Assembly (NCBI GenBank): GCA_963714425.1
Contig: CAVQOI010000005.1
Location: 19,218 to 83,217, forward strand
Length of the DNA: 64,000 nucleotides
Direction: 5' to 3'
From: an uncultured Chloroflexia bacterium
GTDB taxonomy: Bacteria > Chloroflexota > Anaerolineae > Anaerolineales > UBA4823
Each line of letters begins with the position of its first letter. Position 1 is the stretch's first letter. A program made the translations under genes and the position numbers. Below are positions 14,556 through 59,117 of the stretch, piece by piece. The notes below the pieces were generated by a model. It was not told the origin of the DNA. It ran no database searches and saw nothing but the letters and a program-made list of their open reading frames with translations.

Positions 14556-14557
14556 AT

Positions 14558-18826: not shown

Positions 18827-19224
18827 TGGTGGAGATGGGGGGATTCGAACCCCCGTCCGAAAGATTCGTCCCGCGAATATCTACGAGCGTAGTCGGTTTA
18901 TGGGTGTCGCCGCCAGCGTCCAGACCGACAAAGGAGGCTGGCAGCCAGCCGCTCGGACCCGAAAGCCCTTCTTTCGCACGGTTAGCGGCGTCTGGTGCGG
19001 CACTCTATCTTTGTTTCGCCCGATCCTACCACCGGATAGAGGGCGGGGCAGGCGGACGCGGTCCTACGTTGAGGACCGGCTACTCTTGCGATCGCTTATG
19101 CAGCGAGCGGAAGGGCAGCGTAGTTTGTGCTTTTGGCACTTATGGTTTGCGCTGATTTAACGATCTCGGCGCCTATCGGCTCGCAATCCGGGGCCAGCTT
19201 CTCCCGTCGAAGCCTGTCATCCCC
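18827..19224 (-). ncRNA. ssrA: tmRNA (transfer-messenger RNA)
   Basis: The minus strand reads 5' GGGGATGACAGGCTTCGACGGG ... GGACGGGGGTTCGAATCCCCCCATCTCCACCA 3', a tRNA-Ala-like acceptor and T-arm. The internal tag frame is ...GCC AAA AGC ACA AAC TAC GCT GCC CTT CCG CTC GCT GCA TAA (..AKSTNYAALPLAA*). The exact resume codon is not certain. Confidence 0.9.
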
Positions 19225-20519: not shown

Positions 20520-21287
20520 TTATTCGCTTAGATCTCCAGGCGTAAGGTAATTTATACTGCGATGAGGGCGGACTTGGGCTTCGACATCGTCTTTTAAGAC
20601 ATTCCCTGATACGTGCATGAGCGTGTCCCCAAAATCAATATCTTTTCCCATGCTTGCGAGACAGGGGTAGTGATGGTGCAATAGACCAGCTTTTTCGCTA
20701 GCCTCATCCACCGAAACCCCAACCAGCTTTTCTGCAACGTAACGAGCACAGCCACAAACAGCATCTCTTTGTACTTGCACGGAGCTGATAGTACGTGATT
20801 TCTCGTCTACTTCAATTTCTAGATGAGGTTGACCGAAGTAGGACGCGAATTCGGAAATGAGTGGGCTCAGGTAGGTGATTCGCTGGCGGCGGGTGACGCC
20901 ATAATCGGTTTCGGTGAGCGAACATAGCGGTTTAGGCGTCGCGCAGACGACCCCAATATTATCCAGCCATCCTCGCAGCTGGCGTGCAAGGCCGCGGGGC
21001 AGCCAGGCTTCATTATCTACAGAGGCAATTACAGCTTGTGCGCCCGTCATTTTGGCGATATCTGGGATAAGCTCAGCAACTCCACGGTGCTCAGCAAACG
21101 AGAGAATGAGATCACTCTCAGGCAGTTCGGAAGGGAGGTAATCTTCGGGATAATCGAGAATTAGTGGAAATGTGGCAGGCGCCCGCCAGGTAACGATCTC
21201 CCAGGAGGGGGGTGCATGTTTCCGGATATTGTCAGCGTGACGGACCCCGTAATCACCTGAGATAATTGCCAAGATGCGCATAGTCAA
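20520..21287 (-). CDS. DUF166 / COG1810-like uncharacterised protein
   Basis: 255 aa. From memory, MRILAIISGDYGVRHADNIRKH...PKPLCSL...CGCARYVAEKL...HHHYPCLASM resembles the mainly archaeal DUF166 family. Conserved Cys/His suggest metal binding. Confidence 0.45.
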   Translation of the reverse strand: MTMRILAIISGDYGVRHADNIRKHAPPSWEIVTWRAPATFPLILDYPEDYLPSELPESDLILSFAEHRGVAELIPDIAKMTGAQAVIASVDNEAWLPRGLARQLRGWLDNIGVVCATPKPLCSLTETDYGVTRRQRITYLSPLISEFASYFGQPHLEIEVDEKSRTISSVQVQRDAVCGCARYVAEKLVGVSVDEASEKAGLLHHHYPCLASMGKDIDFGDTLMHVSGNVLKDDVEAQVRPHRSINYLTPGDLSE

Positions 21288-25037: not shown

Positions 25038-26969
25038 CTACGCACCTTGCTCCTGACCGGGCTCGAGCTGGTGGTCCAGTATTTCTGCGATGTCCAATAC
25101 CTGTACCTGCTCGCCTAAACCCTTGGAGCGAATGGCATCGTCAAACATGAGCAGGCAGTAAGGGCAAGCTGTAGCTATTGCATCCGCCTTAGCACTCAGC
25201 ACTTCATCTAAGCGACGATGATTGATGCGTGTCTCTGCATCCGTTTCCAACCACATCTGACCGCCCCCTCCGCCGCAACAAAAACTATTCTCCCCTTTAC
25301 GTGCGAGCTCTACTCGTTTGACCTTTGATTGATCGAGCAGCTGTCGGGGTTGGGCGTAAATATTGTTATAGCGCCCCAGGTAGCAGGAATCGTGGACAGC
25401 AAACCGGGCTTGTGCTCCATTGCCGTTAGCTGGGGACATCATGCCTGGCAGTTGCAATTCAGCTAAGAATTCGGTATAGTGTTGGACTTTGAAATTCCCG
25501 CCCATTTGCGGATATTCGTTCTTCAGCGTATTGAAGCAGTGTGGGCACTGGGTGACGATCCTATTGAACTTGATTTTTGAGAATACCTCAATGTTCTGTT
25601 CGGCGAAGGTCTGGAATAGATATTCATGTCCCATCCGCCTGGCAGTCTCTCCACAGCACATTTCATCAAAGCCAAGAATACCGAAATCAACACCAGCTTT
25701 GACCAGCAGGCGAGCAAACGATCGGGCAACTTTCTTATTGCGATCGTCGAAAGCGAAAGCGCATCCCAAGAAAAGCAGCACGTCCGTCTCGTCGCCTGGA
25801 GCTAATTCGCGTAATTCGAGCCCTTCCGCCCATGCTAGCCTGTCTTCTGGGGGCATCCCCCAGGGGTTGCCCTGACGCTCCATGTTTCGCAATGTGTCCG
25901 CGACCGATTTAGGTAGTTTTCCGGTTGTCAATGCCTGATAGCGGCGCAAATCGATGATGGCATCTACCGGGTTGACGAAGGCGGGGCACTTCACCAGACA
26001 GGCTCCACAGGTTGTGCACGACCAGGCGAAATCCTCCGGGAGAACCTCTCCTAAGATCTCACTGTCTGGGTGCCCATTAGGGCTGACCAAAGTATCGAGC
26101 ATGCCAGATCTGAGCGATTGGATCAGGTTTTTTGGGGTATATGCCATACCGCTGATGGTGGCGGGACAGGCCTCTTCACAGCGCCCACAGCGCACACAAG
26201 CATCGAAGGATAATAGCTGGATACTCTGGAATTCTGTGATCTTGCCCACACCCAGCTTCTCGGCATCATCAATATTTTCAATCTTGCTTAATGCACCCAA
26301 TTTTCTTCTCGGGTGAACGAGGATCTGTAGCGGTGTGAAAATTAGATGGCGCAGCTTGGTAAATGGGATGCTGGCAACCAAAGCCAAACCCAAGCCTATA
26401 TGGGAGTATAGAAAAACCGGGTGCAGACTGGCTGCCATTTCTGGTGTCATACCAAGGGTGCGTCCGAAGTGCGCAAGTGCGTTGCCAACCGGCGACCAGC
26501 TGGCCCAGGCAGGTGAGGTGGAAAGGAATCTGGCAGCTTCTGTGGCGAAGCCCACAAGCGGAAGAAGACCGAGTAGAGTGAGCGCGTAAGCATCATCCCA
26601 GCTATTTTCTAGCGTTTTCGGGCGTGCAATAAAGCGCCTGATAGCTGCCATGAAAACACCCAAAATTATGGCTACGCCAGCAATATCCATAATCAGCTCA
26701 TACCCAAGGTAGGCAGCGCCGCGTGGAAAAGGCAGCTCAACAAATGGGATAAAGAGCTGCATTTGCATCAAGTTGATGGCGGTTCCTAACACTTGAACGG
26801 TCACGCCCCAGAAGATAAAAGCATGCATGATGCCAGGGTAAATCTTCTTATAGAGGCGTACTTGACCGAGGGTATTGACGAAGAATTCTGATAAATACGG
26901 CTTGAGGGTTTCTAGCGATTTTCTTATATCCCATCTTCTAGGAGTCGTTGATAGCGTCTTTGTGGTCAT
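25038..26969 (-). CDS. Membrane-bound HdrD/DsrK-like Fe-S reductase (NarI-like TM domain, 2x[4Fe-4S], two CCG domains)
   Basis: N-terminal 5-6 TM region with conserved His (IMHAFIFWG, YSHIGLG, LRHLIF). Ferredoxin motifs CVRCGRCEEACP and CTTCGACLVKCP. CCG-type Cys motifs (LGCAFAFD...MCCG...CPHC and FCCGGGGG...CPYC). Confidence 0.75.
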   Translation of the reverse strand: MTTKTLSTTPRRWDIRKSLETLKPYLSEFFVNTLGQVRLYKKIYPGIMHAFIFWGVTVQVLGTAINLMQMQLFIPFVELPFPRGAAYLGYELIMDIAGVAIILGVFMAAIRRFIARPKTLENSWDDAYALTLLGLLPLVGFATEAARFLSTSPAWASWSPVGNALAHFGRTLGMTPEMAASLHPVFLYSHIGLGLALVASIPFTKLRHLIFTPLQILVHPRRKLGALSKIENIDDAEKLGVGKITEFQSIQLLSFDACVRCGRCEEACPATISGMAYTPKNLIQSLRSGMLDTLVSPNGHPDSEILGEVLPEDFAWSCTTCGACLVKCPAFVNPVDAIIDLRRYQALTTGKLPKSVADTLRNMERQGNPWGMPPEDRLAWAEGLELRELAPGDETDVLLFLGCAFAFDDRNKKVARSFARLLVKAGVDFGILGFDEMCCGETARRMGHEYLFQTFAEQNIEVFSKIKFNRIVTQCPHCFNTLKNEYPQMGGNFKVQHYTEFLAELQLPGMMSPANGNGAQARFAVHDSCYLGRYNNIYAQPRQLLDQSKVKRVELARKGENSFCCGGGGGQMWLETDAETRINHRRLDEVLSAKADAIATACPYCLLMFDDAIRSKGLGEQVQVLDIAEILDHQLEPGQEQGA

Positions 26970-27400
26970 GCCTCGCCTCCTACGTAGACCTCATCACCGG
27001 CCACCGATACAGCTAGTGGAGCTAGCGCCTTTGGAGGTGGACCTGAGATTACATGACCGTCCAAAGGATCAAAATATCCTTCATGGCATGGACATACGAT
27101 TTGAGATATTTCTGGATCCCATTTGCAGATGCAGGCGAAGTGCGTACATACTGCTGAATATGCTCGCAGACCCTCAGGGGTATTGACCACCAGGGCTGGA
27201 TAACGCCCAAAACGGACTGTCTTCGCCATCCCGACAGGAAGCTCTGAGACTTTGCTGACCAGCACCGGCTCTGATGGCATCTCCTCCAGATTGGGGGGGT
27301 AGAAGAAGGCAACCACGGGTCCAAATACCGCCGCCAGACCGGTGGCAGAGAGAGCTTTTTTGGCTAAGGAAAGAAATTCGCGGCGTGATATCTGGCTCAT
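26966..27400 (-). CDS. Rieske [2Fe-2S] protein with twin-arginine signal
   Basis: MSQISRREFLSL is a Tat motif. CTHFAC...CPCHEG is the Rieske CxH / CxxH pair. I prefer the start at 27400, which has a GGAGAGGTGA RBS. ATGA overlap with the downstream HdrD-like gene. Confidence 0.85.
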   Translation of the reverse strand: MSQISRREFLSLAKKALSATGLAAVFGPVVAFFYPPNLEEMPSEPVLVSKVSELPVGMAKTVRFGRYPALVVNTPEGLRAYSAVCTHFACICKWDPEISQIVCPCHEGYFDPLDGHVISGPPPKALAPLAVSVAGDEVYVGGEA

Positions 27401-27402
27401 GT

Positions 27403-27804
27403 CTAGCTCACCTCTCCCCAAATCGTTAATGCGATCAGCAGCACCATCCCAACAATGACAGCAATAAGCCGTGTCGTGTAGATTTTTTTGGATGTGTCCG
27501 GCTTACGGTCAAAGAAAGGCCAAAGCGCAATGATTCCGACCCCAATTACGGGTAATACTGCACCAATAGTTTTTGGGATGTATTTCAACAGCTGGTATAG
27601 AGCCAGGAAATACCATTCCGGTTTAACATGAGCGGGAGTGTCCATTGGGTCGGCGGGGTCGCCCAAACCGATCGGGACGAAGAAACCCAGGATTGCTATG
27701 GCAACTATCACGAAGGTAACGCCCAACACAACCCGGAATTCGGTGCGTACGTGATCAGGGTAGAAAGGAATAGATTCTTCTTCGGTCGCGTGGAGTTCAG
27801 CCAT
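27403..27804 (-). CDS. Cytochrome b C-terminal domain (b6f subunit IV-like)
   Basis: 133 aa with three TM segments and the PEWYFLALYQLLKYIP motif. Confidence 0.8.
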   Translation of the reverse strand: MAELHATEEESIPFYPDHVRTEFRVVLGVTFVIVAIAILGFFVPIGLGDPADPMDTPAHVKPEWYFLALYQLLKYIPKTIGAVLPVIGVGIIALWPFFDRKPDTSKKIYTTRLIAVIVGMVLLIALTIWGEVS

Positions 27805-27828
27805 TAATATCTCCTAGAATTTTAGCGC

Positions 27829-28833
27829 TCACAGCGGTTTAGCAACACCTTGACGGCGCACCATCAAGAAATGGGATCCCATAAAGACCAGGGTCATGAT
27901 CGGGATGACGATGACATGCAGACTGTAGAACCGGCTCAGAGTCAAGGCACCCACATCCCAACCCACACGCAGGAAAACAAGCGATAAGTTGCCAATCACT
28001 GGGATTGCTCCGGCGATCTCTGTACCCACCGTGGTTGCCCAAAATGCACGCTGGTCCCAGGGGAGCAGGTAGCCAGTGAAACCGAAGCCCAGGGTCAATA
28101 TAAGCAGGATCACACCACTCACCCAATTAAGCTCCCGAGGAGCCTTGAACGCCCCCATGACAAAGACTCGCAGCATGTGGGCAGTGCACATGACAATCAT
28201 GCCATTAGCTGCCCAATGGTGGATAGCCCGGATGGCAGCCCCAAAGCGCACCTGTGTCTCAATAAAGAGGATGCTTGCGTAAGCAGCCTCAGGTGTGGGT
28301 TTGTAGTAAAAAGCCAGCATGATACCGGTGATAGCCTGGACGACAAAAAGGAATGCGGTAATGCCTCCCAGACAGTACCACCAGCGTAAGGCAAATGTCG
28401 GGACTGGCTTGTTCAGAACTTTGGAAAGCGGATCACGGATGGAGTAGCGTTCATCGACCCACTCGAAGGCACGGAGCTGGAGCGGTTTCCAGGGAGCGCG
28501 GGTGACCCAGGCGCTGGCGCTGCGATAAACTCCCATTACGAACACCAGCCCGACCATTCCGAAGAACGTCCACCGCACCAGTGGTGTCCAGAGACCTTTA
28601 TTCTCTCCGCTGATATGGCAGTGCAAGCACGGGTCTCTTTCCGGCGGCGGGATTGTGGCAGCGGCACTCGGGTCATGAGATACATTCTGAACGATTGACC
28701 AGGCTGGTATGGAGGGGTCTGGCGCGGTCGCCATCGCCTTGCCATGGGCGTTCATGAAGATTGCCCCAGCAAGCCCAAGGACAAGCAAAACAGTGAAGGA
28801 TAGTAGGAGGATGCGCGGGGAACGATTTGTCAT
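27829..28833 (-). CDS. Cytochrome b (b6-like N-terminal domain) with an N-terminal extension carrying a c-type haem motif
   Basis: Cyt b core (WWYCLGGITAFLFVVQAITGIMLAFYY, AIHHWAANGM, GYLLPWDQRAFWATTV, SLHVIVIP). The N-terminal TM helix is followed by CLHCH (CxxCH). Confidence 0.8.
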   Translation of the reverse strand: MTNRSPRILLLSFTVLLVLGLAGAIFMNAHGKAMATAPDPSIPAWSIVQNVSHDPSAAATIPPPERDPCLHCHISGENKGLWTPLVRWTFFGMVGLVFVMGVYRSASAWVTRAPWKPLQLRAFEWVDERYSIRDPLSKVLNKPVPTFALRWWYCLGGITAFLFVVQAITGIMLAFYYKPTPEAAYASILFIETQVRFGAAIRAIHHWAANGMIVMCTAHMLRVFVMGAFKAPRELNWVSGVILLILTLGFGFTGYLLPWDQRAFWATTVGTEIAGAIPVIGNLSLVFLRVGWDVGALTLSRFYSLHVIVIPIMTLVFMGSHFLMVRRQGVAKPL

Positions 28834-31112: not shown

Positions 31113-31967
31113 CTATAGGAAACTTTCTAATAAAGAACCTACCTCAGCCATAGAAAATACAGGACCATCTACACAAACCAGTTTCTCACCCAGGTTGCAG
31201 CGACCGCATTTTCCGATGCCACAATGCATGCGCGCTTCAAGAGTTACATAGTTCTGGTCAGGTGTGAAGCCGAGCTTCTCAACGAGGATCTTGTTCACAA
31301 AGTGAATCATGATGGGCGGGCCGCAAGTAATCGTGATTGCGTTCTCTGGTACGGGTGCGACTCGATCCAGCAAATCCGTAATCAGGCCGACGTGATGGTC
31401 CCAATGGGAATCGGGGACATCTACGGTGAGATGCAATTGGGTGTCGGGAGCAGAGCGCCAGCTTTGGTACTCGTCAGTAAAAACCAGCAAGGAGGGGTGT
31501 CTTGCTGCCCAAAGGATCGTCAGGTGGCCGTAGTCCTGGCGGTTATTCAAGACATGTTGAATAACCGGGCGCAAGGGTGCCCCGCCTATCCCACCACCGA
31601 GGACGACCAGATCTTTGCCTTTAAAATCCTCCATGGGGAACCAATTCCCAAGAGGACCACGCACACCTATGATATCGCCAACACCCAGCTCGTGCATCTC
31701 TGTTGTAACCGATCCCAGGCGTTGAACGGCAAACTCCAGGGGACCACCATTTGGAGCAGAGGCAAAACCAAAAGCTGCCTCACCCACGCCAAATGCAGAT
31801 ACGAACGCGAACTGCCCAGGTTTATAGGAGCGAAAATGCTCGCTCCCTCCGTTTAGCATTTGCACTCCAAAGAGCTTGATCTCGGACCCAAGGTCTCTGG
31901 TGAAAACGAGTTTACCCAGGTAGGGCTTCATCGGATTATCGTGGTTATTTTCCGTATCTCGCGTCAT
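31113..31967 (-). CDS. FAD/NAD(P)-binding oxidoreductase with C-terminal [2Fe-2S] (FlxA / HydG / AsrB-like)
   Basis: Ferredoxin-reductase-type fold (PGQFAFVS, GPLG, VVLGGGIGGAPL). C-terminal CGIGKCGRCNLGEKLVCVDGPVF. Confidence 0.7.
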   Translation of the reverse strand: MTRDTENNHDNPMKPYLGKLVFTRDLGSEIKLFGVQMLNGGSEHFRSYKPGQFAFVSAFGVGEAAFGFASAPNGGPLEFAVQRLGSVTTEMHELGVGDIIGVRGPLGNWFPMEDFKGKDLVVLGGGIGGAPLRPVIQHVLNNRQDYGHLTILWAARHPSLLVFTDEYQSWRSAPDTQLHLTVDVPDSHWDHHVGLITDLLDRVAPVPENAITITCGPPIMIHFVNKILVEKLGFTPDQNYVTLEARMHCGIGKCGRCNLGEKLVCVDGPVFSMAEVGSLLESFL

Positions 31968-32971
31968 GAGGCCACCTCCGCCATGTCAGCAAGCACTTCT
32001 CCAATATCGATATTGACAGGGCACATCTCAATACAGCGTCCACAGCCGGTACATGCCATTGGACCGTACTGCTCTGCATAGTAGTGAAACTTACACATAA
32101 AGCGATTACGCAGACGTTGGCTTGTGGAGGCGCGTGGGTTATGACCCCCAGCAATCCGACGATAGGAGGGACTGGTGCAAGTATCCCAACAGCGAATGCG
32201 CTCGTATTCGGATTTACCGTCACCACCCGTTAGCGCTTCATCGCGCACGATGAAACACCTGCAGGTAGGACATACATAACCACATATGCGGCAGCTCAGA
32301 CATCGCTCTGCCAAACGCTCCCAGTAAGCATCCGTGAAACGCGCAGACCAGCTTATCGTCTGGGGAGATGGGATCTTGGATAGATCCCGCCTATCGATGA
32401 TGGGTGGTACAACCACCTCGCCAGTAACTGGTTTGAGGCGATCTGATAGGAGCTGGTTGCCTTTTTCAGTCACAATTTGGGCGAGGTAACCTCCATCAGT
32501 TTCGGTAAGCATGATGTCCATGTCCTGAGGATCATCTGGAAACCCTCCAACACTGGTACAAAAGCAGGTTTCGCCCATCTCGCGGCATGCGAGGCCAATC
32601 AGGGTTGTATTTTCCCGACGCTTGGCATAGTACGGATCAGATGGCTCCATCAGGAACATCTCATCCAGGATCTTCATCCCCCTGGCGTCACATGGGCGGA
32701 CACCAAAGATGACGACCTCACCTTCAGGCAAGGTCTCGGTAAGCTGAAGCTCTTGCCCGTTTATGTGGATATGTAGCAGCGCCTCCGTTGCAGGGAAGAA
32801 CACTTCTTTTATGGATAGTGCAGGGCGCGAAAACTTCCAGGCGATTTCCGACGTGGTTCCCACCTGGCGGTAACGAAGGACACCTTCATCCCGGGTGGGA
32901 GCAACAAGATTCGATTCTTGTGCTAAGTTATCGAGTATTGCGGAGAGATCTGCTTGGGATAGGAACTTCAT
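31964..32971 (-). CDS. 4Fe-4S dicluster protein (FlxB/C, HydB, AsrA-like)
   Basis: CLSCRICGYVCPTCRCF and CTGCGRCIEMCPVNI. 4-nt overlaps with both neighbours. Confidence 0.65.
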   Translation of the reverse strand: MKFLSQADLSAILDNLAQESNLVAPTRDEGVLRYRQVGTTSEIAWKFSRPALSIKEVFFPATEALLHIHINGQELQLTETLPEGEVVIFGVRPCDARGMKILDEMFLMEPSDPYYAKRRENTTLIGLACREMGETCFCTSVGGFPDDPQDMDIMLTETDGGYLAQIVTEKGNQLLSDRLKPVTGEVVVPPIIDRRDLSKIPSPQTISWSARFTDAYWERLAERCLSCRICGYVCPTCRCFIVRDEALTGGDGKSEYERIRCWDTCTSPSYRRIAGGHNPRASTSQRLRNRFMCKFHYYAEQYGPMACTGCGRCIEMCPVNIDIGEVLADMAEVAS

Positions 32972-34329
32972 GGCAGCTGCTCCTCTCCGTTCAGGATTGT
33001 GACGAATGGTGATGGGACTGGCTCCAGACCGGCACGGTGCCCGAATACTGTCTGCATCTCCTGGATGAGTTTCCCGTTGAGCAAGCTAATCGGGATCTCC
33101 ATCGGACACACACGCTCGCACTCGTGGCAATCCACGCAACGACCAGCCAGATGATATGCTCTTCCCAGGTGGAAGGTGCGTTTCTCATTTGCATTGATGC
33201 CCATGCCTACCCAGAGAGAGTCATCTCGCTCGTACAAGCAGGTGGGGCAGGCACACATCGGACAGACCTGGCGACAAGCATAGCAGCGGATACATCGATC
33301 GAACTGCGACAGCCAATATTCCATACGCTCTGGAGCTGACTTAGCATCCAGCTCGGAAAGCCGCGGGGGAATCACAAGCTGAGGATGCACTTCTGGGGCA
33401 TCGCCGACCAGGGTGTCGTATACAATGGGTATACGCTGATCACATTCCTGGCATCGCTCCTGGAGACTGCAATTGTCGCTGTTCACTTCTCGCATCCCCT
33501 GGCAGGCCACTCCAATCACATGAACCTGACCCCGCTCAAACCGATTTTCAGCGAGCAACACGTTTATCGCCCGGCTGTCACACGGTTTTGCCACGATGGC
33601 GATGGGTTTTTTGGGTTCTGATCCTGCCTTTGTCCCCGGAGGGTAGAGGGTCGAGTGCAGGTAAGTCGTCAGGTTATGGGAGCAGTCCTGGTTCCAAACT
33701 AGGCGCTGGACCTCTGCCGGATTGCGGACAAACGCTGGGCGTGTGCGCCCATGCGTACCAGACTCATAGCCTATTACAACGCTCACTTCGCCTGTGGAAA
33801 GCAACTGGCGCGCTGTATCCTGGATCAACACGGCCACATGGGATTCATCAGGAGGCGCAACCAGTCTGGCTGTCGAAGTCTCTGTATTGAAATTAGTTCT
33901 TACTGGATCGTGGTCTCGCTGGCTTAATCTCCATTTCACTGGTCCAAGTGAACGCACCTTGTCTGTGAACTCGTTTACGATGCGACTGAAGCGCTCACCT
34001 TCAGAAGCGGAAACGTAATCGAGCCGCAGCCTTTCGGGCTCCAGCCCGGTAAAAGCCATGAGCGATTGGAGAATTGGCAGGCGCTTGGCTGTGCGATGAT
34101 TGCCAGTGTCATAATGGCATTCACCGACGTGGCAGGCGAGGACAAGCACACCATCTGCCCCTTGGTCAAAGGTACGCATGATTATCTCGGGAGCGACACG
34201 TCCAGAACAGGGGACGCGCACAGCACGCACATTTGCTGGAGATTTCAGCCGAGCGATACCAGCTGTATCAGCGCCTGTATAGCTACACCAGGTACATAGA
34301 AATGCAATGATCTTAGGTTCGTATGGCAT
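32968..34329 (-). CDS. MvhD/FlxD-domain protein fused to an Fe-S (2x[4Fe-4S]) module
   Basis: The N-terminus KIIAFLCTWCSYTGADTAG...VRVPCSGRVAPEIIMRTF..GADGVLVLACHVGECHY is an MvhD/FlpD domain. The C-terminus has CIRCYACRQVCPMCACPTC and CVDCHECERVCP. Confidence 0.7.
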   Translation of the reverse strand: MPYEPKIIAFLCTWCSYTGADTAGIARLKSPANVRAVRVPCSGRVAPEIIMRTFDQGADGVLVLACHVGECHYDTGNHRTAKRLPILQSLMAFTGLEPERLRLDYVSASEGERFSRIVNEFTDKVRSLGPVKWRLSQRDHDPVRTNFNTETSTARLVAPPDESHVAVLIQDTARQLLSTGEVSVVIGYESGTHGRTRPAFVRNPAEVQRLVWNQDCSHNLTTYLHSTLYPPGTKAGSEPKKPIAIVAKPCDSRAINVLLAENRFERGQVHVIGVACQGMREVNSDNCSLQERCQECDQRIPIVYDTLVGDAPEVHPQLVIPPRLSELDAKSAPERMEYWLSQFDRCIRCYACRQVCPMCACPTCLYERDDSLWVGMGINANEKRTFHLGRAYHLAGRCVDCHECERVCPMEIPISLLNGKLIQEMQTVFGHRAGLEPVPSPFVTILNGEEQLP

Positions 34330-34340
34330 TCCACGACCTC

Positions 34341-37300
34341 CTAAGTACTTACGATTCCCGGGACTATCGGCATGGAAGTGGCAGGCACATCCATATCCAG
34401 AGCTCCGAGCATCTCATTAATGATCTGGCGATCATCGTAGTGGATCAGGCTCATGGCTTTATTTGGACAAGCTGCAGCGCAAGTACCACAGCCTTTGCAC
34501 AGGAAGCCTTTCACTACAGCGACTCCATCCTGAAGCTCGACCGCCCCATAAGGGCAAGCGTAGGTGCATTGCCCGCAACCCGCACAGCGGACTTGATTGA
34601 CAACAGCAATGGATGGATCCAAAGCGATCGTACCCTGGTCTATCAGCGAGAGAGCAGCAGCGGCTGCGGCTCCTGCCTGGGCGACACTATCGGGGATATC
34701 CTTCGGGCTCTGGCAGGCGCCGGCCAGGTAGATCCCTTCGTTCGCCGTTTCAACGGGAGCGAGCTTGGGGTGGCGCTCGAGAAAGAAACCATCGCGGCTG
34801 CGGCTAAGACCAAAAGTGTTGGCGACGCGGGAGGAATCATCGCGCGGCTCGAAACCGGTAGCGAGGATAACCATATCCACTTCGACATGGTCTGGCTGGT
34901 TATAGAAACTCTCATCCCAGGAGACACGTAGCTTTCCATTCACACGCTCGACGCTCCGTACTCTCCCGTGGTAGAAGTTGACACCCTTCTTTCGTGTGCG
35001 GTTATAGAACTCCTCATAATCTTTGCCGAAGGTGCGCATATCTCGATAAACTTCGTGGACTTCGGCGTCCACATAGTCATGTACCAGCTGGGCAAATTTC
35101 AAGGAATACATGCAACATGCACGCGAGCAATACTCATTGGTTTCCGTGTCGCGGCTACCAATACAATGCACAATGGCGACACTTTTCGGAGGCTTGCCAT
35201 CGGTAAGCAGCACTTTTCCACTGGTTGGACCGCTGGCGTTGATCAGTCGCTCAAATTCCATCGCAGAGACAATGTTGTCAAGCTTGCCATAGCCAAGTTC
35301 GGGAATGCGGGCAGGATCGAAATCCTTAAAGCCAGTCGCCAGAATGATCGTACCGACCTTAATGTCGATGGTCTCATCCTGCATATTGTGATCGATTGCG
35401 CCGCGCTCGCACGCTGCCAGGCACTCCAGGCACTCTGAACAGATGCCACAGCGCAAACATCGCTCAGCCTCGCTCAGCGCCTCTTCCTCGCTCATGGTCA
35501 GGTCGACCTCGCGGAAATTGTGAACGCGTTCTTGCACGGGGATGCTTCGTATGGGGACACGCCCAGCCAAGGAGGCCTCCCCGTTGTCAAACTTTTGCTC
35601 GATCTCTTCCTGGGTCAACTGGACTGTAGGCAGCTTGCGTGGTTCCTGAAGGCCGTTTTCGCCGCGCAGATAACGGTCAATACTGCGTGCGACGCGGTGA
35701 CCTTCGCCGATGGCATCGACAACAAAGAAAGTAACGCCGCGATGGACGTCGCCAGCGACAAATACACCTCGTTGTGTGGTCATCATATCCGCATTGCTCT
35801 GGATGCCCACGGGGTAGCGTGTATTGATGCTGCCATCGGGTGGCAGGAAGGAGAAATCCGGTCCCTGACCAATTGCCCATATGACCAGGTCGGCGGGAAG
35901 AATATGCTCGGTGCCAGGGATTTCATCCATATCCGGACGCCCCTGCTTGAAGCCTCGGAAGTTGACCTCGACACTGCGCACACCAAGAATCTTATCTTCT
36001 TTCACCACAATTTCTTTGAAGGTCCTGGAGGGGCATAAGATCACGCCTTCCTCTTCAGCAACACCGACCTCCCAGTCGAAACCAGGCATCTCGCCGCGCG
36101 GTTCCAAACAAGCCATACGTACCTCATCCGCGCCTAGACGCAGGACAGTTCGGGCAGTGTCTAGGGCGACATTTCCGCCACCCAGGACCACGACTTTCTT
36201 ACCGCTTAAGTCGATCTTCTCACCGAGTGTAACCTGGCGAAGCAGTTTCAAGCTGAGCCAGTTGTCCGGATGGTTCGAGTTACGGATAGGCAGCTTTTTG
36301 GCGGAATGAGCGCCAGTCGCAACAAGAACGGAGTGATAGCCGTTCTCGAGTAGGGAGGGGATGTCATCTACCCAGGCGTTCAGGCGAAGATCGACGCCCT
36401 CCTCAATTACCTGCTTGATCTCCCAATCGAGCATATCTGTTGGCAGCCGGTGAGGGGGGATACCGACGCGCATCATCCCGCCTGCAACGGGGAGTGCATC
36501 GAAGACGGTAACCTGGTGTCCTAATCGCACCAAGTCAAGAGCGGCAGTAAGCCCTGCTGGACCTGCCCCGATAATGGCGACCTTTTTCCCAGATTGTGGG
36601 TGGTTGTGCTGGAACGGGGTGCCAACCAAACTTTTATCACGCATCTGGGGTAATTCATGCCTGTGCTCGTACGCCCAGTCTGAGACGAAGCGCTTTAAGC
36701 CCATGATGTTCACGGATTCATCATACTTGCCTCGGCTGCACATATCCTCGCAGTGGTGATTGCAGACCCGCCCGCAGACAGATGGGAAAGGATGCTCCCT
36801 GCGAATCGCCCAATAGGCGTCTGCATAGCGTTTTTGACCAATGAGAGCGATATATCCCTGCGCGCGCTGGTCGGTAGGGCAGGCACTCCTACAAGGAGCA
36901 ACGCCTAGTTTTTGGATGGCGTAAGCCCCCGGAACTGCCTGGGCGGAGAATCGGTAAGATGCTTTGCGTGTGCTGAGGCCCATATCGAACGGGTTGGAGA
37001 TGTCAACAGGGCAAACTTCTGCGCATTTCCCGCATCCAGTGCATTGGGATTCATCGATATAACGTGATTTGCGGTGCACGCGCACATCGAAATTCCCAAC
37101 ATAACCAGAAACCGATTGGACCTCGCTGTAGCTCAGTAAGCTGATGTTTTCGTGGCGTCCAACGGACACCATTTTTGGTGTGAGTATTCAAGCCGCGCAG
37201 TCAAGCGTGGGGAAGGTCTTATATAGCTGAGCCATATGCCCACCGATGCTTGGCTCACGCTCTACAAGGTATACGTGCTTCCCAGCGTCTGCGAGCCTGA

Positions 37301-37781
37301 GGGCAGCCTCGATCCCAGCAATGCCTCCACCAACCACTAGAGTAGATGGGAGCATGTCAACATTGCGCTGCTCCAGCGGCTCGTGATAGCGTACTCGCCG
37401 GACAGCAGCTTCGACCAAACTCATGGCTTTATTGGTCGCCATATCCCGGTCGTCGATCACCCAGGAGCAATGCTCACGGATATTTGCCATCTGGAAGAAG
37501 AAAGGATTGAGTCCGCCTTCCATGCAGGCTTTTCTAAAGGTCGGCTCATGCATCAACGGGGTGCAAGAAGCCACCACAACCCGGTTCAAACCGTACTCAC
37601 GAATATCCTCTTTGATCAGATCCTGGCCCGGATCGGAGCACATATAGGTGTAATCTTTAGCTAGAATGACACCATCCAGAGTCCGGGCGTGGTCAGCGAC
37701 CGACTTCACGTCCACCGTGGCGGCAATATTGGTGCCGCAATGACAGACGTACACGCCGGTTCTGATTTTGGAGAGGTTCAT
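34341..37781 (-). CDS. hdrA: HdrA-like flavoprotein with in-frame UGA (predicted Sec198) and an inserted GltD/NfnB-like NAD(P)H module; read-through product 1146 aa
   Basis: Track ORFs 37188..37781 and 34341..37172 are in the same frame, separated only by TGA (37188-37190): TLDCAA-TGA-ILTPKMVSVGRHENI. The N-terminus has VVGGGIAGIEAAL (FAD). An insert at about 35460-36930 has CRSACP...CGRVCNHHCEDMC plus IIGAGPAGLTAA and VVLGGGNVALD, which is GltD-like. Confidence 0.7.
37153..37171 (-). promoter_or_regulatory. Candidate bacterial SECIS hairpin for the long hdrA
   Basis: The minus strand reads U GGUGUCC GUU GGACGCC A, an 8-bp stem with a 3-nt G-containing loop, starting 16 nt after the UGA. Confidence 0.5.
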
Positions 37782-39820
37782 GCCGGCACCTCCTCTAAAG
37801 GCATTGTGCGCAATGAGTTGAGCAACGCGCCTTCTATTTCAGCCATAACCTGCTCATAAGTAAACCCATGCTGGAGAGCAGCGCCAGCCGGACAAGCGCC
37901 CGCACATGCGCCGCATCCCTTGCAAAGAACTTCATTGATGAGAGCCACCTGCCTCCCTTCAAAGTCAACCATCTCGATGGCACCGTATGGGCAAAGCCCC
38001 TCGCAGGTGCGGCAGCCACCGCATTTTTCAGGGATTACGTAAGTAGTAAATGGCTCCAATGTGACATGCCCAGCATCCAGCATGGATAAGACACCCGCAG
38101 CAGCGGCACCACCCTGGGCAACGCTATCGGGGATATCCTTAGGTCCCTGGCAGGTCCCCGCAAGGAATACTCCATCGGTGGCAGTTTCCACGGGGGCTAG
38201 CTTGGGATGCTTCTCTAAGAAGTACCCGTCGGGGCTTAGACTAATGCCGAAAGTCTTGGCTACCTCAAGCTGGTCGCTATGCGGTTCGAGCCCAGTGCTA
38301 AGCACCACCATATCCACCAGGACATCATCAGGCTGCCCGGTAAAAATATCTATGGTTGAGACTTTCAGGTGCCCATTCTGCTGCGAGACATGAATTTTCT
38401 CTTCGAAGCGATGGAAATGAACACCATTTTGGGCAGCGCGAGTGTAGAAACCTTCATAATCCTTACCGAAGGTACGCATATCCCGGTAAAACTGGTAGAC
38501 TTCCGCATCCACGTAATGACGGATAAGCTCTGCCAGTTTGAGTGAGTACATACAGCAAACCCGCGAGCAGTATTCATGATGTTGCAGATCGCGGCTGCCG
38601 ACACAATGCAGGATTGCGATCCGCTCAGGCTTGCGCCCGTCTTTGAGCACCACTTGACCATTTGTGGGTCCACCGGTATTGATCATGCGTTCGAATTCCA
38701 TGCCGGAGACTACATTGTCGAGCTCTTTATAACCATATTGGGGAGCTTTGTGGGGGTCGAAATCTTGAAATCCAGTTGCCAGGACAATGCCACCGACTTC
38801 GACATCTATTAATTCATCCTTTTGCTCAAAGTCGATCGCCTGGCGTTGGCAGAACTTCTCGCAGGCACGACATTTGCCTCGTAGGAAATATGCACAGTTC
38901 TCAGTATCGATTATCGGTACGCGCGGCACAGCTTGGGCAAAGGGGAAGTAGATCGCCGGGCGATTGCCTAATCCCATATCAAATTCGGAGGGGATCTTTT
39001 TCCATGGGCATTTTTCAACGCATGCGCCGCAGCCAGTGCAATTTTCTTCGTTTACATAGCGCGCTTTTTTACGGATCTTCACGTTGAAATTTCCCACATA
39101 TCCCGATACCGATTCAACCTCACTGTTGCTCAGCAGAGTGATGTTTTCGTGGCGTCCCACGGACACCATCTTCGGAGTGAGAATTCAAGCCGCGCAGTCT
39201 AAGGTTGGAAATGTTTTGTACAACTGCGCCATGTGCCCGCCGATACTGGGCTGGCGCTCAACTAGATAGACATGCTTACCTGCGTCCGCCATGCGAAGGG
39301 CAGCTTCAATACCGGCGATCCCGCCACCAACGACTAACGCTGCCTGCTTGACGGTAACCTGCCGGCTGGTGAGCTCTTGGTTTAAGGCTACCCGGCGCAC
39401 GGCTGCAGACACGAGGGCTTTTGCTTTCTGGGTTGCCAGGACCATATCATCGGAAACCCAGGAGCAATGCTCGCGTATGTTTGTCATCTGGAAGAGAAAT
39501 GGGTTGAGCCCTCCCTCAGCGCATGCCCGCCGAAAGGTGGTCTCGTGCATCAGGGGTGAGCATGAGGCAACCACAACTCGATCTAAGCCCTCATTTTGTA
39601 TATCATCCTTGATGAGAGCCTGACCTGGATCAGAACACATGTAGGCGTAGTGGCGCGAGACTGCAACACCGTCGAGCGTGGATGCAAAATCAGCGACTGC
39701 AGCAACATCCACCATGCCTGCGATGTTTGTACCGCAGTGGCAGACATAAACGCCGATCTTTTCCCCGCAACCAGCGCGCAGAGAGGGTGGTCCGGTTTGG
39801 GAGCTCTGCTTTGGCTTCAT
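37778..39820 (-). CDS. hdrA: HdrA-like flavoprotein with in-frame UGA (predicted Sec212); read-through product 680 aa
   Basis: Track ORFs 39185..39820 and 37778..39169 share one frame, separated only by TGA (39185-39187): TLDCAA-TGA-ILTPKMVSVGRHENI. It has VVGGGIAGIEAAL, four ferredoxin-type Cys motifs, and an AAGGAGG RBS upstream of the ATG at 39820. Confidence 0.7.
39150..39168 (-). promoter_or_regulatory. Candidate bacterial SECIS hairpin for the short hdrA
   Basis: The minus strand reads U GGUGUCC GUG GGACGCC A. Stem and spacing (16 nt after the UGA) are identical to the paralog; only the loop base differs. Confidence 0.5.
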
Positions 39821-39909
39821 CCGGCTGACCTCCTTAAATGGGTATTGTGTTGTTGGTCATAATTGGGCATTGGTGCACCGTTAACTCGCTACAATAATTC
39901 TTAACGATG

Positions 39910-43188: not shown

Positions 43189-44719
43189 TCAGTCTCCGAA
43201 TTTAATCCCCTGCGCAAGGGGTAAATCCTTCGACCAGTTGATTGTATTGGTCTGGCGGCGCATGTAGGCTTTCCATGCATCCGACCCGGATTCTCTACCT
43301 CCACCTGTCTCTTTCTCACCACCGAAAGCACCGCCAATCTCCGCGCCCGAAGTACCGATATTTACGTTGGCGATGCCACAATCCGAACCAGCGACAGAGA
43401 GGAATTGCTCGACCTGGCGCATTGAATCTGTAAATATGGCGCTTGAGAGACCCTGGGGGACATCGTTATGTATTTGGATGGCTTCGTCTAATGATTGGTA
43501 TTCTAATAAATATAGGATAGGCGCGAAGGTCTCTCGGCGGACAATATCTGTCTGAGCGGGCATTCTAATGATTGTAGGCTCAACGAAATTTGGTCCGACC
43601 TCGGGGAGCATGTTCCCGCCAAATAACACTTCCCCGCCATCCGCTCTCGCCTGATCAATCGCATCCATCATCTCTTCTACGGATGTGTTTACTACCAGAG
43701 GCCCCATGAGGACATCGGGGTGAAACGGATCACCGATATTTACTTGTTTGTAGGCTGCGACCAGACGCTTTTCCAGCTCTTTTTCAATGGATTTGTGAAC
43801 AATGATGCGGCGCGTGGAAGTGCAGCGCTGCCCGGCGGTCCCCACAGCGCCAAACAGGATCGCGCGAGTTGCCAATGCCAGGTCTGCATCTTCCGCTATG
43901 ATGATTGCATTGTTTCCGCCAAGCTCGAGGATTGACCGCCCAAAACGACGGGCGACTACTTCGGAAACGTGCCGTCCAATCTGCGTGGAGCCTGTAAATG
44001 AGATTATCGGCAAGCGTGGATCATTGAGGAGCAACTCGCCAACCTCCCGCCCCGAGCCGATGACTAGGTGTAAAAATGCCATGCAAGCCATGATCGGCCA
44101 TCACCTGGTTGCAGATATGCTGGGTAGCGATTGCGGTAAGAGGTGTATAGGAGGACGGTTTCCACACAACGGTATCACCGCAAACAGCTGCTAAGGCAGC
44201 ATTCCAGGACCACACTGCGGTGGGAAAATTGAATGAAGTGATTAATCCCAGGACGCCTGCAGGATGCCACTGCTCGTACATGCGGTGGGAAGGGCGCTCT
44301 GAATGCATGGTCAGGCCATAGAGCTGGCGGGAAAGTCCGACAGCGAAATCTGAGATATCGATCATCTCCTGAATTTCGCCAGAGCCTTCGACGCGGATCT
44401 TGCCCATTTCCAAGGTAACCAGCTCCGCCAACGGCTCTTTGAGCTGGCGCAATGCATTCCCAAGATCTCGTACGAAATCCCCCCGCTTCGGTGCAGGAGT
44501 CTCCCGCCAGGTAAGGAAAGCTTCGTGTGCTGTTCTTGCAACGGTCTCATACGTGCTTGGCGTAGCCTGAAGGACGTTCGCGAGCGGCTCACCTGTGGTC
44601 GGATTGAAGGATACCAGTACTTTTCCATTCGGGTCAGATAGCCAGCCGTCTTGACCGGTGCAAGCACCGGGGTTTGTCTCATTGAGATTGAGTTTCTTCA
44701 GCAGTGGATGCATGATCAC
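43189..44719 (-). pseudogene. ALDH7-type aldehyde dehydrogenase (alpha-aminoadipic semialdehyde / piperideine-6-carboxylate dehydrogenase-like) interrupted by a 1-nt frameshift
   Basis: The N-terminal part (44021..44719) and the C-terminal part (43189..44091; [22 protein letters not shown], ...[10 protein letters not shown]) are in different frames. The shift maps to a T5 run in the coding strand (A5 at 44072-44076). Removing one base restores [16 protein letters not shown]. Confidence 0.75.
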
Positions 44720-55155: not shown

Positions 55156-56130
55156 TCACTGCGTGTAATGCTGGCTGGCATCATCGAGTGCGGAGACTTC
55201 AGCCTCGGTTAACCGCCATCCTAATGCACCAAGATTCTCAACGGCTTGCTCAACAGTCTTTACGCCCGGGATTGGGACGGCGCCTTTGCAGATTACCCAA
55301 TTGATGGCGACCTGGGAGGCTGTCTTGCCCTCATGGGCTGCCCCGATTTCGTGCAGTAGGCGGATGAGTGGGTCAATTTTAGAGAGCAATTTTGCAGGAT
55401 ACCTGCGACCACGTATGCCAGGGAGCGGATTCCTTGCGCTGTACTTTCCTGATAAAACACCTTGTGCGATAGGACCGTAGGCAATGCAAGTTATTTCGAG
55501 ATCTTTGCAGAGTTCAAGCATCCCATTTCTTTCGATTCTGCGGTCTAACAGGCTGTACTCGACTTGATTTGAAGAAAGGAAATACCCGCGTTTTATCAGT
55601 ACGGCGTGGGTGCGATTCATCTGTTTGGCGTTGTAATTTGAAACACCAACGGCTCCCACTAGACCTTCATCCATAGCATCTGCCAGCGCTGAAGCCCAGC
55701 TCTCGATTGGGATGGGTGGAAAAGGTTGGTGAATCTGGTACAAATCAATTATGGGTATTTTTAGCCGTCTCAAGCTGCCCTGTAAGGCATTGATCAGGCT
55801 CCTGTTTCTCAGTCGCCACGGGTAAGGATAGAATTTACTCGCCACAATTATGGGAGGTGCTTCATCTGGGAGAGATTGGATAAATTGTCCCAACAATCTT
55901 TCCGATCGTCCCTGCCCATATATCTCAGCTGTATCGAAGAAGTTAATACCAGCATCGACGCAGGTTTCAAAAGCCTTTTTTACGTGAGATTCGCCATAAT
56001 CCTTTCCGTACCCCCAATAAAAGCGGTCCCCCCATGCCCAGGCACCTATCCCCATTAGAGGGATCTGGATGGTTGATTTTCCCAGGAATATCTCGCCAAA
56101 CTCAGGGTTCAAATTGTGGGCTCCTTGCAT
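55156..56130 (-). CDS. Aldo/keto reductase
   Basis: GIGAWAWG, FFDTAEIYG, KF...P and LYQIHQP motifs. I prefer the start MQGAHNL at 56130. The track ORF extends to 56292, inside the upstream gene. Confidence 0.8.
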   Translation of the reverse strand: MQGAHNLNPEFGEIFLGKSTIQIPLMGIGAWAWGDRFYWGYGKDYGESHVKKAFETCVDAGINFFDTAEIYGQGRSERLLGQFIQSLPDEAPPIIVASKFYPYPWRLRNRSLINALQGSLRRLKIPIIDLYQIHQPFPPIPIESWASALADAMDEGLVGAVGVSNYNAKQMNRTHAVLIKRGYFLSSNQVEYSLLDRRIERNGMLELCKDLEITCIAYGPIAQGVLSGKYSARNPLPGIRGRRYPAKLLSKIDPLIRLLHEIGAAHEGKTASQVAINWVICKGAVPIPGVKTVEQAVENLGALGWRLTEAEVSALDDASQHYTQ

Positions 56131-57649
56131 GCAACTTTGTCTGCCATTTCGAGAAATGGTATGATTTCCGTCCATCCTGATCGATGATCTGCCTGGCAAC
56201 CCGCATCCCACCAAGGGCGGTGGCTGCGGTGGATTGACCGGGAAAAATACTGTCTCCAACCATCCATAATTGTGGAGCAAGACGAGGAGCATGCGTGCGA
56301 AATAGATGCGTCTGAGGAAAGCCCCCTACCCACCCATATTCGCGGCGTGTAAAGCGCTGGAAAGTTACCGGAGTACCAGGCATGACCAGTTTGGAAGCCT
56401 GACGCAATCCCGGCAGGGCAATTTCTGCAGTCTGAAGTATTTTATCGGCCAGGAGGGTTTTTTGCTGATCATACGCGACACGGTCATTATGGTAATAGTG
56501 CCACCAACGCCGCAGGTCTGTGTGCGTACTTATCGTCGCTGCGCGCTGACCCGCTGGGGCCCGGCTAGAATCCCACCCAGGGTTGGCAGAAATGAATATC
56601 GAGTTACCTTCGCCTAAAGGTTCGCCGGCGATAACTTGATGGTGAAGTGAACTCTCGTCCGGCAATATCATGCTGTCAAAACCGACGTATATTATAAACG
56701 CACCCCATCCATCTTGCGGGATTTGGTAGCGACTCTTGTTCTGTGGAAGCGAGTGCTCTTCCATCAATCTATATATATTCGGAGGAGGCAGGTTAAGAAT
56801 AAGAACATCCAGTGGGAATTTCTCCCCCCGCCGGGTTTCAACGGAAATTGGCTTGCCGGATTTTAGCAGGATACGTGTGACTTGTTGGCGATAATGCACT
56901 TGCCCACCTGATTTGTGGATGGACTGCACGAGAGCCTCAGCAATTGAACCCATCCCGCCCTCTAAGTGCATAACGCCTCGCCGGGCGATATCCAATGCAG
57001 CGGCCCCATACAATGCGTTGGTCTGTTTGCTGGTAGCTTGTGCGGAGATGAGCAGCTGGGCATCGACAAACTGCCGCAATCGATCGGGGGCTCCCTTTAA
57101 GTGCGTCGCCACCGGAAGGATTGCATCTATTAAGAAGTTTGGGGACAACCTGTAGAAAGGATCGACCTTGATCCATGGGAGTGCCTGGCGTAGCAGCTGG
57201 AGGCCATCGCCAACATTTTGTAGAGGCCAAATTGGCGAGCGTAGCGCCAGATCCCAGAGCGCATCTGCAGTTCGTTCCTGCCACACCCAAAACGCCTCAG
57301 ATTGGGAGCCAAAAGCTGCCTGTCGCGCTGACCAGCGTCGATCATCACTCCACAGCTTGAGTTCTTCGCCGCCCGGTTGGTGGACAGTCATTGCCAATTC
57401 TGCGGGAAGACCATTCCAATGAGGGATGCCTACTGCCTGCGCCAGTTGGTCCATTGGCCCACCGGGGTAGAATCCAGCAGCCATTGTCGCGCCGCTATCA
57501 AAACGGTATCCCTGATGAAAAAACGTGGCTGCACAACCACCGGGATAGACCTGGGCTTCTAATACTACAACATCGTATCCTGCGCGGGCTAGTACAGCAG
57601 CTGCGGATAGTCCTCCTACGCCAGCACCTACAACGATGCAGCGGGGCAT
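56102..57649 (-). CDS. Phytoene desaturase-family (CrtI/CrtD-like) FAD-dependent oxidoreductase
   Basis: IVVGAGVGGLSAAAVLARAGYDVVVLEAQVYPGGCA is a dinucleotide-binding motif, and the C-terminus has WMVGDSIFPGQS. I prefer the start MPRC at 57649, 2 nt after the upstream stop. Confidence 0.7.
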   Translation of the reverse strand: MPRCIVVGAGVGGLSAAAVLARAGYDVVVLEAQVYPGGCAATFFHQGYRFDSGATMAAGFYPGGPMDQLAQAVGIPHWNGLPAELAMTVHQPGGEELKLWSDDRRWSARQAAFGSQSEAFWVWQERTADALWDLALRSPIWPLQNVGDGLQLLRQALPWIKVDPFYRLSPNFLIDAILPVATHLKGAPDRLRQFVDAQLLISAQATSKQTNALYGAAALDIARRGVMHLEGGMGSIAEALVQSIHKSGGQVHYRQQVTRILLKSGKPISVETRRGEKFPLDVLILNLPPPNIYRLMEEHSLPQNKSRYQIPQDGWGAFIIYVGFDSMILPDESSLHHQVIAGEPLGEGNSIFISANPGWDSSRAPAGQRAATISTHTDLRRWWHYYHNDRVAYDQQKTLLADKILQTAEIALPGLRQASKLVMPGTPVTFQRFTRREYGWVGGFPQTHLFRTHAPRLAPQLWMVGDSIFPGQSTAATALGGMRVARQIIDQDGRKSYHFSKWQTKLHARSPQFEP

Positions 57650-57651
57650 GT

Positions 57652-58125
57652 TTACACTTGGTCCAGATAGGATGTCTGCTTCGACATTTCTCTGATTAGC
57701 TTGCGCGTTTTCCACCCTCGATATGCGAACAATAGTGGCAGACTTAGACCCATGACAAGTCCAACCAAACCCCAGAGCAGGTGTTTTTTTACTCGGAATT
57801 GGATTTCGTCGACGACAAGCGTTTCACCAGTATCGAGCTGGTGATATTTATGGGCATGGGACCATGTTTCGAACGGACCGGAGGTCTGCCGGTCGGTAAA
57901 CCCATTGAGTGAGACGTCTTCAATATTCGCAACCCAGTGGATCGGCAACGGTCCCAACCACAAGGTGAAATCCATCACATCTCCCTCCCCTAATTTTTGC
58001 TTGGCAGAGTGAATCTGCACTTTTACAGGTGGGGGTGTGATTGCAGCCATACTTGTAGAGTTGGAGTGGAAAGCACTCACAACATTGATTGGCGCTGGGA
58101 CCAGAAACTCGTGACGGTATTTCAT
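57652..58125 (-). CDS. SRPBCC-fold protein with C-terminal TM helix
   Basis: 157 aa. This arrangement is commonly paired with TIGR01777-type SDR genes. ATGA overlap with the upstream gene. Confidence 0.5.
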   Translation of the reverse strand: MKYRHEFLVPAPINVVSAFHSNSTSMAAITPPPVKVQIHSAKQKLGEGDVMDFTLWLGPLPIHWVANIEDVSLNGFTDRQTSGPFETWSHAHKYHQLDTGETLVVDEIQFRVKKHLLWGLVGLVMGLSLPLLFAYRGWKTRKLIREMSKQTSYLDQV

Positions 58126-59060: not shown

Positions 59061-59117
59061 AACAACCTCCGTTTCTTGAATAGATTATACTCCGTAACAT
59101 CCACGCCGTCAATGTAT

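Follow-up and report, generated by a model that had tools for sequence, protein, structure and literature searches.

Sulfate reducers possess NAD(P)H-dependent electron-bifurcating complexes of the FlxABCD-HdrABC type. HdrA with selenocysteine (Sec) is among the long-established selenoprotein families of prokaryotes. A 2026 review includes the heterodisulfide reductase alpha subunit in its list of such families and gives CxxU as the motif (PMC13188914), where U is Sec. In the cryo-electron microscopy structure of the M. maripaludis Hdr-Vhu-Fwd assembly (2026), Sec197 of HdrA pairs with a cysteine between cluster A3 and the flavin adenine dinucleotide (FAD), and the authors call the role of this pair unresolved (PMC13518236). 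Zhang et al. (2006) described 16 bacterial and archaeal Sec-HdrA genes as well as hdrA-hdrA tandems in Deltaproteobacteria (PMC1794560), and Strittmatter et al. (2009) reported HdrA and HdrL with Sec, HdrL being a fusion of HdrA with glutamate synthase; mvhD lies behind each of these genes, and at one locus hdrL and hdrA form a tandem (PMC2702500). Here, we analysed a 64-kb stretch of contig CAVQOI010000005.1 from an uncultured Chloroflexia bacterium (hereafter the window; coordinates refer to the whole of it and (-) marks the minus strand), which carries two tandem hdrA genes, hdrA1 and hdrA2, both with an in-frame TGA. We hold with high confidence that 39820..37778 (-) is one gene, hdrA1, for an HdrA-family FAD/[4Fe-4S] protein, and that its UGA codon 212 is recoded as Sec by means of a bacterial Sec insertion sequence (SECIS) predicted just downstream. 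The Sec-HdrA family, the position of Sec, the hdrA-hdrA tandem and the Sec-HdrL fusion type are already known. What is new is modest, namely the Anaerolineae lineage, the near-universal Sec form in this clade and a strongly conserved, compact SECIS common to both paralogs; the finding leaves knowledge of selenocysteine decoding unchanged. In the literature on Anaerolineae we found reports of Sec-containing formate dehydrogenases and of SelB, and none of Sec-HdrA.

The hdrA1 region is presented in the table of open reading frames (ORFs) as two pieces, 39185..39820 (211 residues) and 37778..39169 (463 residues). A previous interpretation made from the letters alone (below, the sequence-only reading) had placed both in one frame, and translation bears this out, as 39820..37778 (-) forms a single frame of 681 codons whose sole internal stop is the TGA at 39187..39185, codon 212. 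The minus-strand junction reads ACC TTA GAC TGC GCG GCT TGA ATT CTC ACT CCG AAG ATG GTG, exactly as had been described. Its TGC at 39194..39196 (-) encodes Cys209, which would be the partner cysteine of a C-A-A-U redox motif, the UGA at 39185..39187 (-) supplies the predicted Sec212, i.e., the U of CxxU, and five codons (ILTPK, 39170..39184 (-)) separate the UGA from the ATG of the second called ORF. The product would be a flavo-iron-sulfur protein of 680 residues. An AAGGAGG Shine-Dalgarno sequence lies at 39835..39829, upstream of the hdrA1 ATG at 39820, and a GAGGAGG at 37795..37789 precedes the ATG of the long paralog, hdrA2. The stop codon of hdrA1 (37780..37778) overlaps the hdrA2 start codon (37781..37779) in an ATGA at 37778..37781 (-). 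This overlap, also pointed out in the sequence-only reading, is real and recurs at 66 short copies among the fetched loci and the window; it would fit a coupled translation of the two genes.

Homology extends across the TGA. Pfam detects FAD/NAD Rossmann signatures before it, and Pyr_redox_2 together with several 4Fe-4S ferredoxin (Fer4) domains after it. When the hdrA1 protein with the TGA replaced by Cys was used as the query, residues 21-666 matched residues 5-650 of HdrA from Methanothermococcus thermolithotrophicus (5ODC_A, E=4.7e-214), and four further solved HdrA chains matched nearly as strongly. The similarity to characterised HdrA runs over the full length and takes in the Fe-S domain at the N terminus, the FAD domain, which is of the thioredoxin-reductase-like type, and both ferredoxin domains, the inserted one and the C-terminal one. 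The TGA column corresponds to the second Cys of KTFPTNDCSICILAPKMV in 5ODC_A, which is Cys197 when counted back from the alignment coordinate, and it is also the column of Sec197 in M. maripaludis, so that the Sec predicted at codon 212 in the sequence-only reading falls on the catalytic CxxU/CxxC column of HdrA. In comparison with methanococcal HdrA (Sec197 in M. maripaludis and M. jannaschii, Cys in 5ODC of M. thermolithotrophicus), hdrA1 has the same fold, the same domain order and the Sec column in the same place next to FAD.

The methanogen HdrA/HdrA2 equivalog models of NCBIfam gave strong matches whose scores were nevertheless lower than the cut-offs, with 812 bits against 1100 for NF040770 and 598 against 1400 for NF041778. 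This shortfall is partly due to a fused MvhD domain covered by the models, for which the window has a gene of its own. Moreover, neither hdrB nor hdrC was detected with Pfam or NCBIfam in the operon 39820..31113. Because of the sub-cut-off scores and an operon devoid of hdrB and hdrC, hdrA1 is, judged by sequence, a member of the HdrA family and not a demonstrated CoB-CoM (coenzyme B-coenzyme M) heterodisulfide reductase or its equivalog. The surroundings also differ from the methanococcal case in that no hdrB/hdrC, Vhu hydrogenase or Fwd genes adjoin hdrA1, which makes CoM-S-S-CoB an unlikely substrate.

One genome per GTDB species was scanned, which gave 80 loci, all from metagenome-assembled genomes of Chloroflexota, mostly labelled Anaerolineae/Anaerolineales, with 65-80% identity. 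The genome of the window itself is not one of these species representatives, and the closest fetched locus has 80% identity over a partial match and 77% over the full length. In a motif scan of these loci, two metagenome contigs (L001 and L002) and the window, the Sec-site codon is TGA 155 times, TGC eight times and TGT once. TGA is used by 76 of the 80 related species and occurs 150 times at the identical codon within the 80 genome loci alone, a recurrence well beyond chance, which agrees with the earlier argument for a decoded UGA as opposed to a random nonsense mutation. The alternation between TGA and TGC, proposed at the same time as a check on related genomes, is found at exactly this codon: L057, L059, L061 and L066 have a Cys codon (TGC/TGT) in both tandem copies, and Sec and Cys are never mixed within a tandem pair at any locus where both copies were recovered. 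These four Cys-only genomes are JAIOAU01, JBEULG01, CALGPL01 and JAIOAQ01. The remaining TGC belongs to a third, more distant hdrA of the Cys type in L007 (FPTNDCAMCIMSPK). Both copies of contig L001 have TGA, as does L002. Such alternation among species excludes a nonsense mutation or an assembly error, and an in-frame UGA aligned with a conserved redox-active Cys, with TGA-containing orthologs in other organisms, is what is expected of a selenoprotein gene. In seven of the loci (L009, L013, L047, L048, L074, L075 and L076) we also noted a third TGA-containing hdrA copy 4-6 kb away from the tandem pair.

A search at the protein level gives a very different picture, since 116 of the best 120 protein matches (out of 8000) have Cys at the Sec column. 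Among these 120 are three 463-residue C-terminal fragments that start with MVSVGRH, i.e., P0004 (the window's own product), P0019 and P0070 (encoded by L001). The start of these matches at MVSVGRH indicates that other Sec genes have been cut by gene callers at the same place, so that protein databases under-represent the Sec forms.

Within the window, the same TGA codon is found in hdrA2 (34341..37781 (-), predicted Sec198). Its one internal TGA, at 37190..37188 (codon 198), lies in a motif identical to that of hdrA1, LYKTFPTLDCAA*ILTPKMVSVGRHENI, and the two paralogs have 14 residues in common around it (FPTLDCAA*ILTPK, the asterisk marking the TGA). Protein identity between hdrA1 and hdrA2 is 74% before the TGA and 54-67% after it. 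Nucleotide alignment of the paralogs confirms that both hold TGA at the identical codon despite many synonymous differences near the junction, as had been noticed from the letters. A scan of the window for further in-frame TGA junctions with a redox motif, with at least 80 codons on either side, returned none beyond the hdr pair.

The 155 TGA copies align without gaps, and numbering from the U of the UGA as 0 allowed us to compare the sites downstream of it. In the 15-nt linker the wobble positions (+5, +8, +11, +14 and +17) vary freely and the first and second codon positions are nearly fixed; ILTPK is retained in all but a few copies, and the substitutions follow a pattern of period three. 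As the linker varies almost only at third positions, it is translated and is not an intergenic spacer. Directly behind it, positions +19 to +37 read UGGUGUCC-GUN-GGACGCCA. In hdrA1 this segment is the predicted SECIS hairpin 5'-UGGUGUCC-GUG-GGACGCCA-3' (39150..39168 (-)), with a stem of 8 bp and a loop of 3 nt that starts with GU and begins 24 nt after the UGA; the same hairpin is present in hdrA2 at 37171..37153 (-). Here the fourfold-degenerate stem wobbles are frozen (G at +23 and C at +26 in all 155 copies, A at +32 in 154 and C at +35 in 150 of them), and the wobble in the loop, +29, is free (G75/T61/C18/A1). The nine Cys copies vary at exactly the stem wobbles that are frozen in the TGA copies, and their stem is disrupted. 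The mean energy of the hairpin is -11.25 kcal/mol in TGA copies and -4.8 kcal/mol in Cys copies. When the eight pairs are scored over 145 distinct sequences, 99.4% of cells are paired, as compared with 25-61% when the partner strand is slid. One pair shows a double change from G-C to A-U (four distinct sequences), and two pairs show compatible one-sided changes.

The bacterial SECIS model specifies a loop of 3-9 nt on 4-16 bp of stem, a G (often followed by G/U) within the first two nucleotides of the loop, a distance of 16-37 nt between UGA and loop, and a minimum free energy (MFE) of at most -7.5 kcal/mol (PMC13188914). The hairpin agrees with the model on every point, with a GUN loop of 3 nt, an 8-bp stem, a spacing of 24 nt and an energy of -11.3 kcal/mol, which is the folding energy of the 19-nt segment in both window copies. 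Thus, a post-UGA hairpin is present, conserved, consistent with the bacterial model and missing from the Cys forms, and it is predicted to be a bacterial SECIS under selection in the TGA forms. The case for it comes mainly from the suppression of synonymous change. In archaea the SECIS lies in the 3' untranslated region (PMC13188914), whereas the candidate signal here is inside the coding region after the UGA, because the gene is bacterial.

A variant class of this element, AUGACGUCC...GGACGUCA, was seen at position 7345 and position 10780 of L009, 12228 of L013, 12586 of L016, 12586 of L064 and 12591 of L079. In this class Thr replaces Val after the conserved Met (in L016 and L064 that Met is itself also replaced by Thr), and along with the protein change comes a compensating C-to-U in the 3' arm. 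The intermediate that lacks this compensation, with an A-C mismatch, is seen in L013.

Several observations weigh against Sec insertion through this hairpin. Taken in a single sequence, the hairpin is not significant (z = -1.5 to -1.9), the unconstrained MFE fold of the hdrA1 junction is a different structure, and covariation is thin, with one compensatory pair. The MFE structure of the hdrA2 junction is exactly the hairpin in question. The modest z-scores and the alternative hdrA1 fold mean that we rely on the comparative evidence. No SECIS family was matched in Rfam, either over the whole window at gathering thresholds or over 37000..39300 at E up to 10; however, to our knowledge general bacterial SECIS elements apparently have no Rfam family, which renders this result uninformative. 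Finally, searches of the 64-kb window and of about 1.5 Mb of related loci yielded no tRNA-Sec, selA, selB or selD. They comprised ARAGORN on the window and 60 loci, NCBIfam on 45 window proteins outside the hdr operon, and motif scans for SelA, SelB and SelD on all loci translated in six frames; the NCBIfam scan did not extend to five ORFs (13845..17237 and 62452..63033), none of SelA or SelB size. Elsewhere in the lineage, SelB and Sec-containing formate dehydrogenases have been reported in single-cell genomes of Anaerolineales and in A. thermophila (PMC4959059). Near this subject stands a 255-residue ORF at 20520..21287 (-) with a weak, partial match to the DUF166 (seleno)protein DfsP (60 bits against a cut-off of 200) and no evident in-frame TGA.

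The lack of Sec machinery in the window could also be taken to mean that the UGA is read through as Cys or Trp by near-cognate or suppressor decoding, and Cys is indeed functionally acceptable at this site in most homologs. We consider this very unlikely. A hairpin that fits the SECIS model and is under strong selection in the TGA forms only argues for SelB-dependent decoding, and the class is reported to possess SelB and enzymes with Sec (PMC4959059). TGA is, moreover, a frequent genuine stop, terminating 22 of the 52 long ORFs in the window, with hdrA1 itself among them. We know of no precedent for efficient non-Sec read-through at a catalytic residue kept in more than 70 species, which counts against this alternative as well. 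A general reassignment of UGA was rejected on the same count of genuine TGA stops. Mukai et al. (2017) contained nothing relevant on alternative UGA-to-Cys recoding in Chloroflexi (PMC5424206).

A second alternative, to which we assign an equally small probability, is a genuinely split gene, in which translation stops at the UGA and reinitiates at the ATG 15 nt further on, and the N-terminal FAD fragment and the C-terminal Fe-S fragment assemble non-covalently. The ATG is there, public annotations call two ORFs (P0004, P0019 and P0070 being the 463-residue products), and some HdrA proteins are encoded by two or three genes (Strittmatter et al., PMC2702500). However, the Met encoded by this ATG is a conserved part of the family motif (I/L)xPKMV and occurs in unsplit Cys forms too, and no Shine-Dalgarno sequence precedes the ATG. 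The linker, as described above, evolves as codons with ILTPK conserved, the gene is uninterrupted in the Cys genomes, and termination at the UGA would take away the catalytic residue of the CxxC/U pair. A nonsense mutation, decay to a pseudogene or a fault of assembly has a practically negligible probability as the source of the TGA. The window does contain an aldehyde dehydrogenase gene that seems to be frameshifted (split at 44091/44021), but both window paralogs have the identical TGA codon, as have 150 more copies in 80 species genomes that were assembled independently, and both halves of the gene are under purifying selection.

Under recoding of the UGA as Sec, SelB-GTP-Sec-tRNASec would be recruited, once the ribosome arrives at the UGA of hdrA1, by the 8-bp hairpin, whose GUN loop lies 24 nt downstream, and codon 212 would be decoded as Sec in place of terminating translation. 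Cys209 and Sec212 would then form the CxxU redox pair beside the bifurcating FAD, in the position of Sec197 in methanococcal HdrA. The real stop of hdrA1, a UGA that lacks the hairpin, would terminate translation where it overlaps the ATG of the second gene, a putative Sec-containing HdrA/GltD fusion of the HdrL type. The two proteins probably join the downstream-encoded MvhD-like and Flx/Asr-like subunits in an NAD(P)H-linked flavin-based bifurcating complex.

The second gene, hdrA2, differs from hdrA1 by an insertion of about 500 residues, a GltD/NfnB-like NAD(P)H-binding module. Pfam and NCBIfam place Fer4_20 and Pyr_redox_2 at residues 96-495 of the part after the Sec, together with PRK12771/GltD matches. 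An HdrA core with an inserted GltD-like module, followed by a gene with an FlpD domain, corresponds to the HdrL architecture as it has been described. By this comparison of descriptions, hdrA2 resembles HdrL of Desulfobacterium autotrophicum HRM2 (where HdrL1 and HdrL3 are selenoproteins) in its architecture, its predicted Sec, the mvhD behind it and its tandem arrangement with an ordinary hdrA (PMC2702500). The 2009 paper held HdrL to be unique to that organism (PMC2702500), whereas the type is widespread in Anaerolineae here.

Downstream of hdrA2, Pfam and NCBIfam identify, all on the minus strand, an MvhD/FlpD and Fe-S fusion (34329..32968), an AsrA/ShyB-like Fe-S beta subunit (32971..31964) and an AsrB/ShyC-like gamma subunit with FAD/NAD(P) and 2Fe-2S domains (31967..31113); behind the gamma-subunit gene Pfam finds a two-component system. 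The gene order is the same on metagenome contig L001, with a divergent cysS, an hdrA split into 212 and 463, a long hdrA split into 197 and 938, an FlpD gene and a Fer4_22 gene. Deltaproteobacteria and Clostridia (among them Syntrophobacter fumaroxidans, Syntrophus and Moorella) have Sec-HdrA genes of this selenoprotein family, likewise with the UGA in frame, and tandem copies of hdrA occur there beside an mvhD/frhD-like gene (PMC1794560). The window differs from these in its host, a member of the Chloroflexota (Anaerolineae), in its MvhD-like gene, which has no in-frame TGA, and in the partners, which are Flx/Asr-like NAD(P)H modules and not glpC-frhD-frhG-frhA. In domain content, the parts also resemble FlxABCD-HdrABC (HdrA, an MvhD-like/FlxD protein, an Fe-S subunit and a subunit with FAD/NAD(P) and 2Fe-2S domains), but the window operon is without HdrB and HdrC. 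From this domain content, and by analogy with the Flx-Hdr and HdrL systems, the products of the operon probably form an NAD(P)H-linked module for flavin-based electron bifurcation.

A bolder proposal, which we regard as possible though rather doubtful, is that the tandem Sec-HdrA/Sec-HdrL with the MvhD- and Flx/Asr-like subunits represents a distinct, Anaerolineae-wide NAD(P)H-dependent bifurcating complex that works without HdrBC. A selenylsulfide relay of Cys and Sec would be required at each of its flavin sites, and a single, almost invariant minimal SECIS (8-bp stem, GUN triloop), identical in both paralogs across more than 70 species, would serve the two genes. If true, this would be a natural SECIS of compact form, and bacteria would offer a test bed for what Sec197 does in HdrA. 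Irrespective of this proposal, natural bacterial Sec/Cys pairs of the kind seen among these genomes could help to address what the Cys-Sec pair beside the bifurcating flavin of HdrA does.

The main consequence of the finding concerns annotation, as the deposited gene calls cut hdrA1 (into 39820..39185 and 39169..37778), hdrA2 and many of the Anaerolineae orthologs into two ORFs each. This introduces a systematic bias whenever the use of Sec or Cys is judged from predicted proteomes: Cys is found in 116/120 matches of the protein search, which makes Cys forms look like the nearest complete relatives, and TGA in 76/80 species at the DNA level. Metabolic reconstructions of these abundant bacteria of sediments, soils and digesters should treat the locus as intact and selenium-dependent.

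Other features of the window were noted in passing. The CCG-domain protein nearest to the operon is encoded at 25038..26969, about 4 kb past the operon end, in a separate Rieske/cytochrome b cluster. This cluster (25038..28833 (-)) is unusual in that a cytochrome b6/ExtP-like gene (28833..27829) and a Rieske Fe-S gene (27421..26966) are followed by the gene for this protein, which is HdrD/TfrB-like and 643 residues long (26969..25038); it may constitute a membrane quinol-linked Hdr-like module apart from the hdrA operon. The aldehyde dehydrogenase gene mentioned above, for an L-piperidine-6-carboxylate/aldehyde dehydrogenase (43189..44719 (-)), consists of two ORFs that overlap and lie in different frames, of which 44719..44021 covers profile positions 2-176 and 44091..43189 covers positions 181-474. 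The break is probably a frameshift, due either to a pseudogene or to an assembly error, and it indicates that disrupted genes or errors do occur in this assembly. At 18827..19224 (-), Rfam identifies a transfer-messenger RNA (tmRNA) gene with 158.9 bits, and its tag peptide is AKSTNYAALPLAA. In L003 and L006 a similar tmRNA gene follows the hdr locus, about 9 kb downstream, which extends the synteny that far. Lastly, the region 56102..60210 holds carotenoid and light-response genes in what is presumed to be an anaerobe, with a CrtD-like carotenoid desaturase (57715..56102) near a CarH-like B12/light-dependent MerR regulator (59128..60210).

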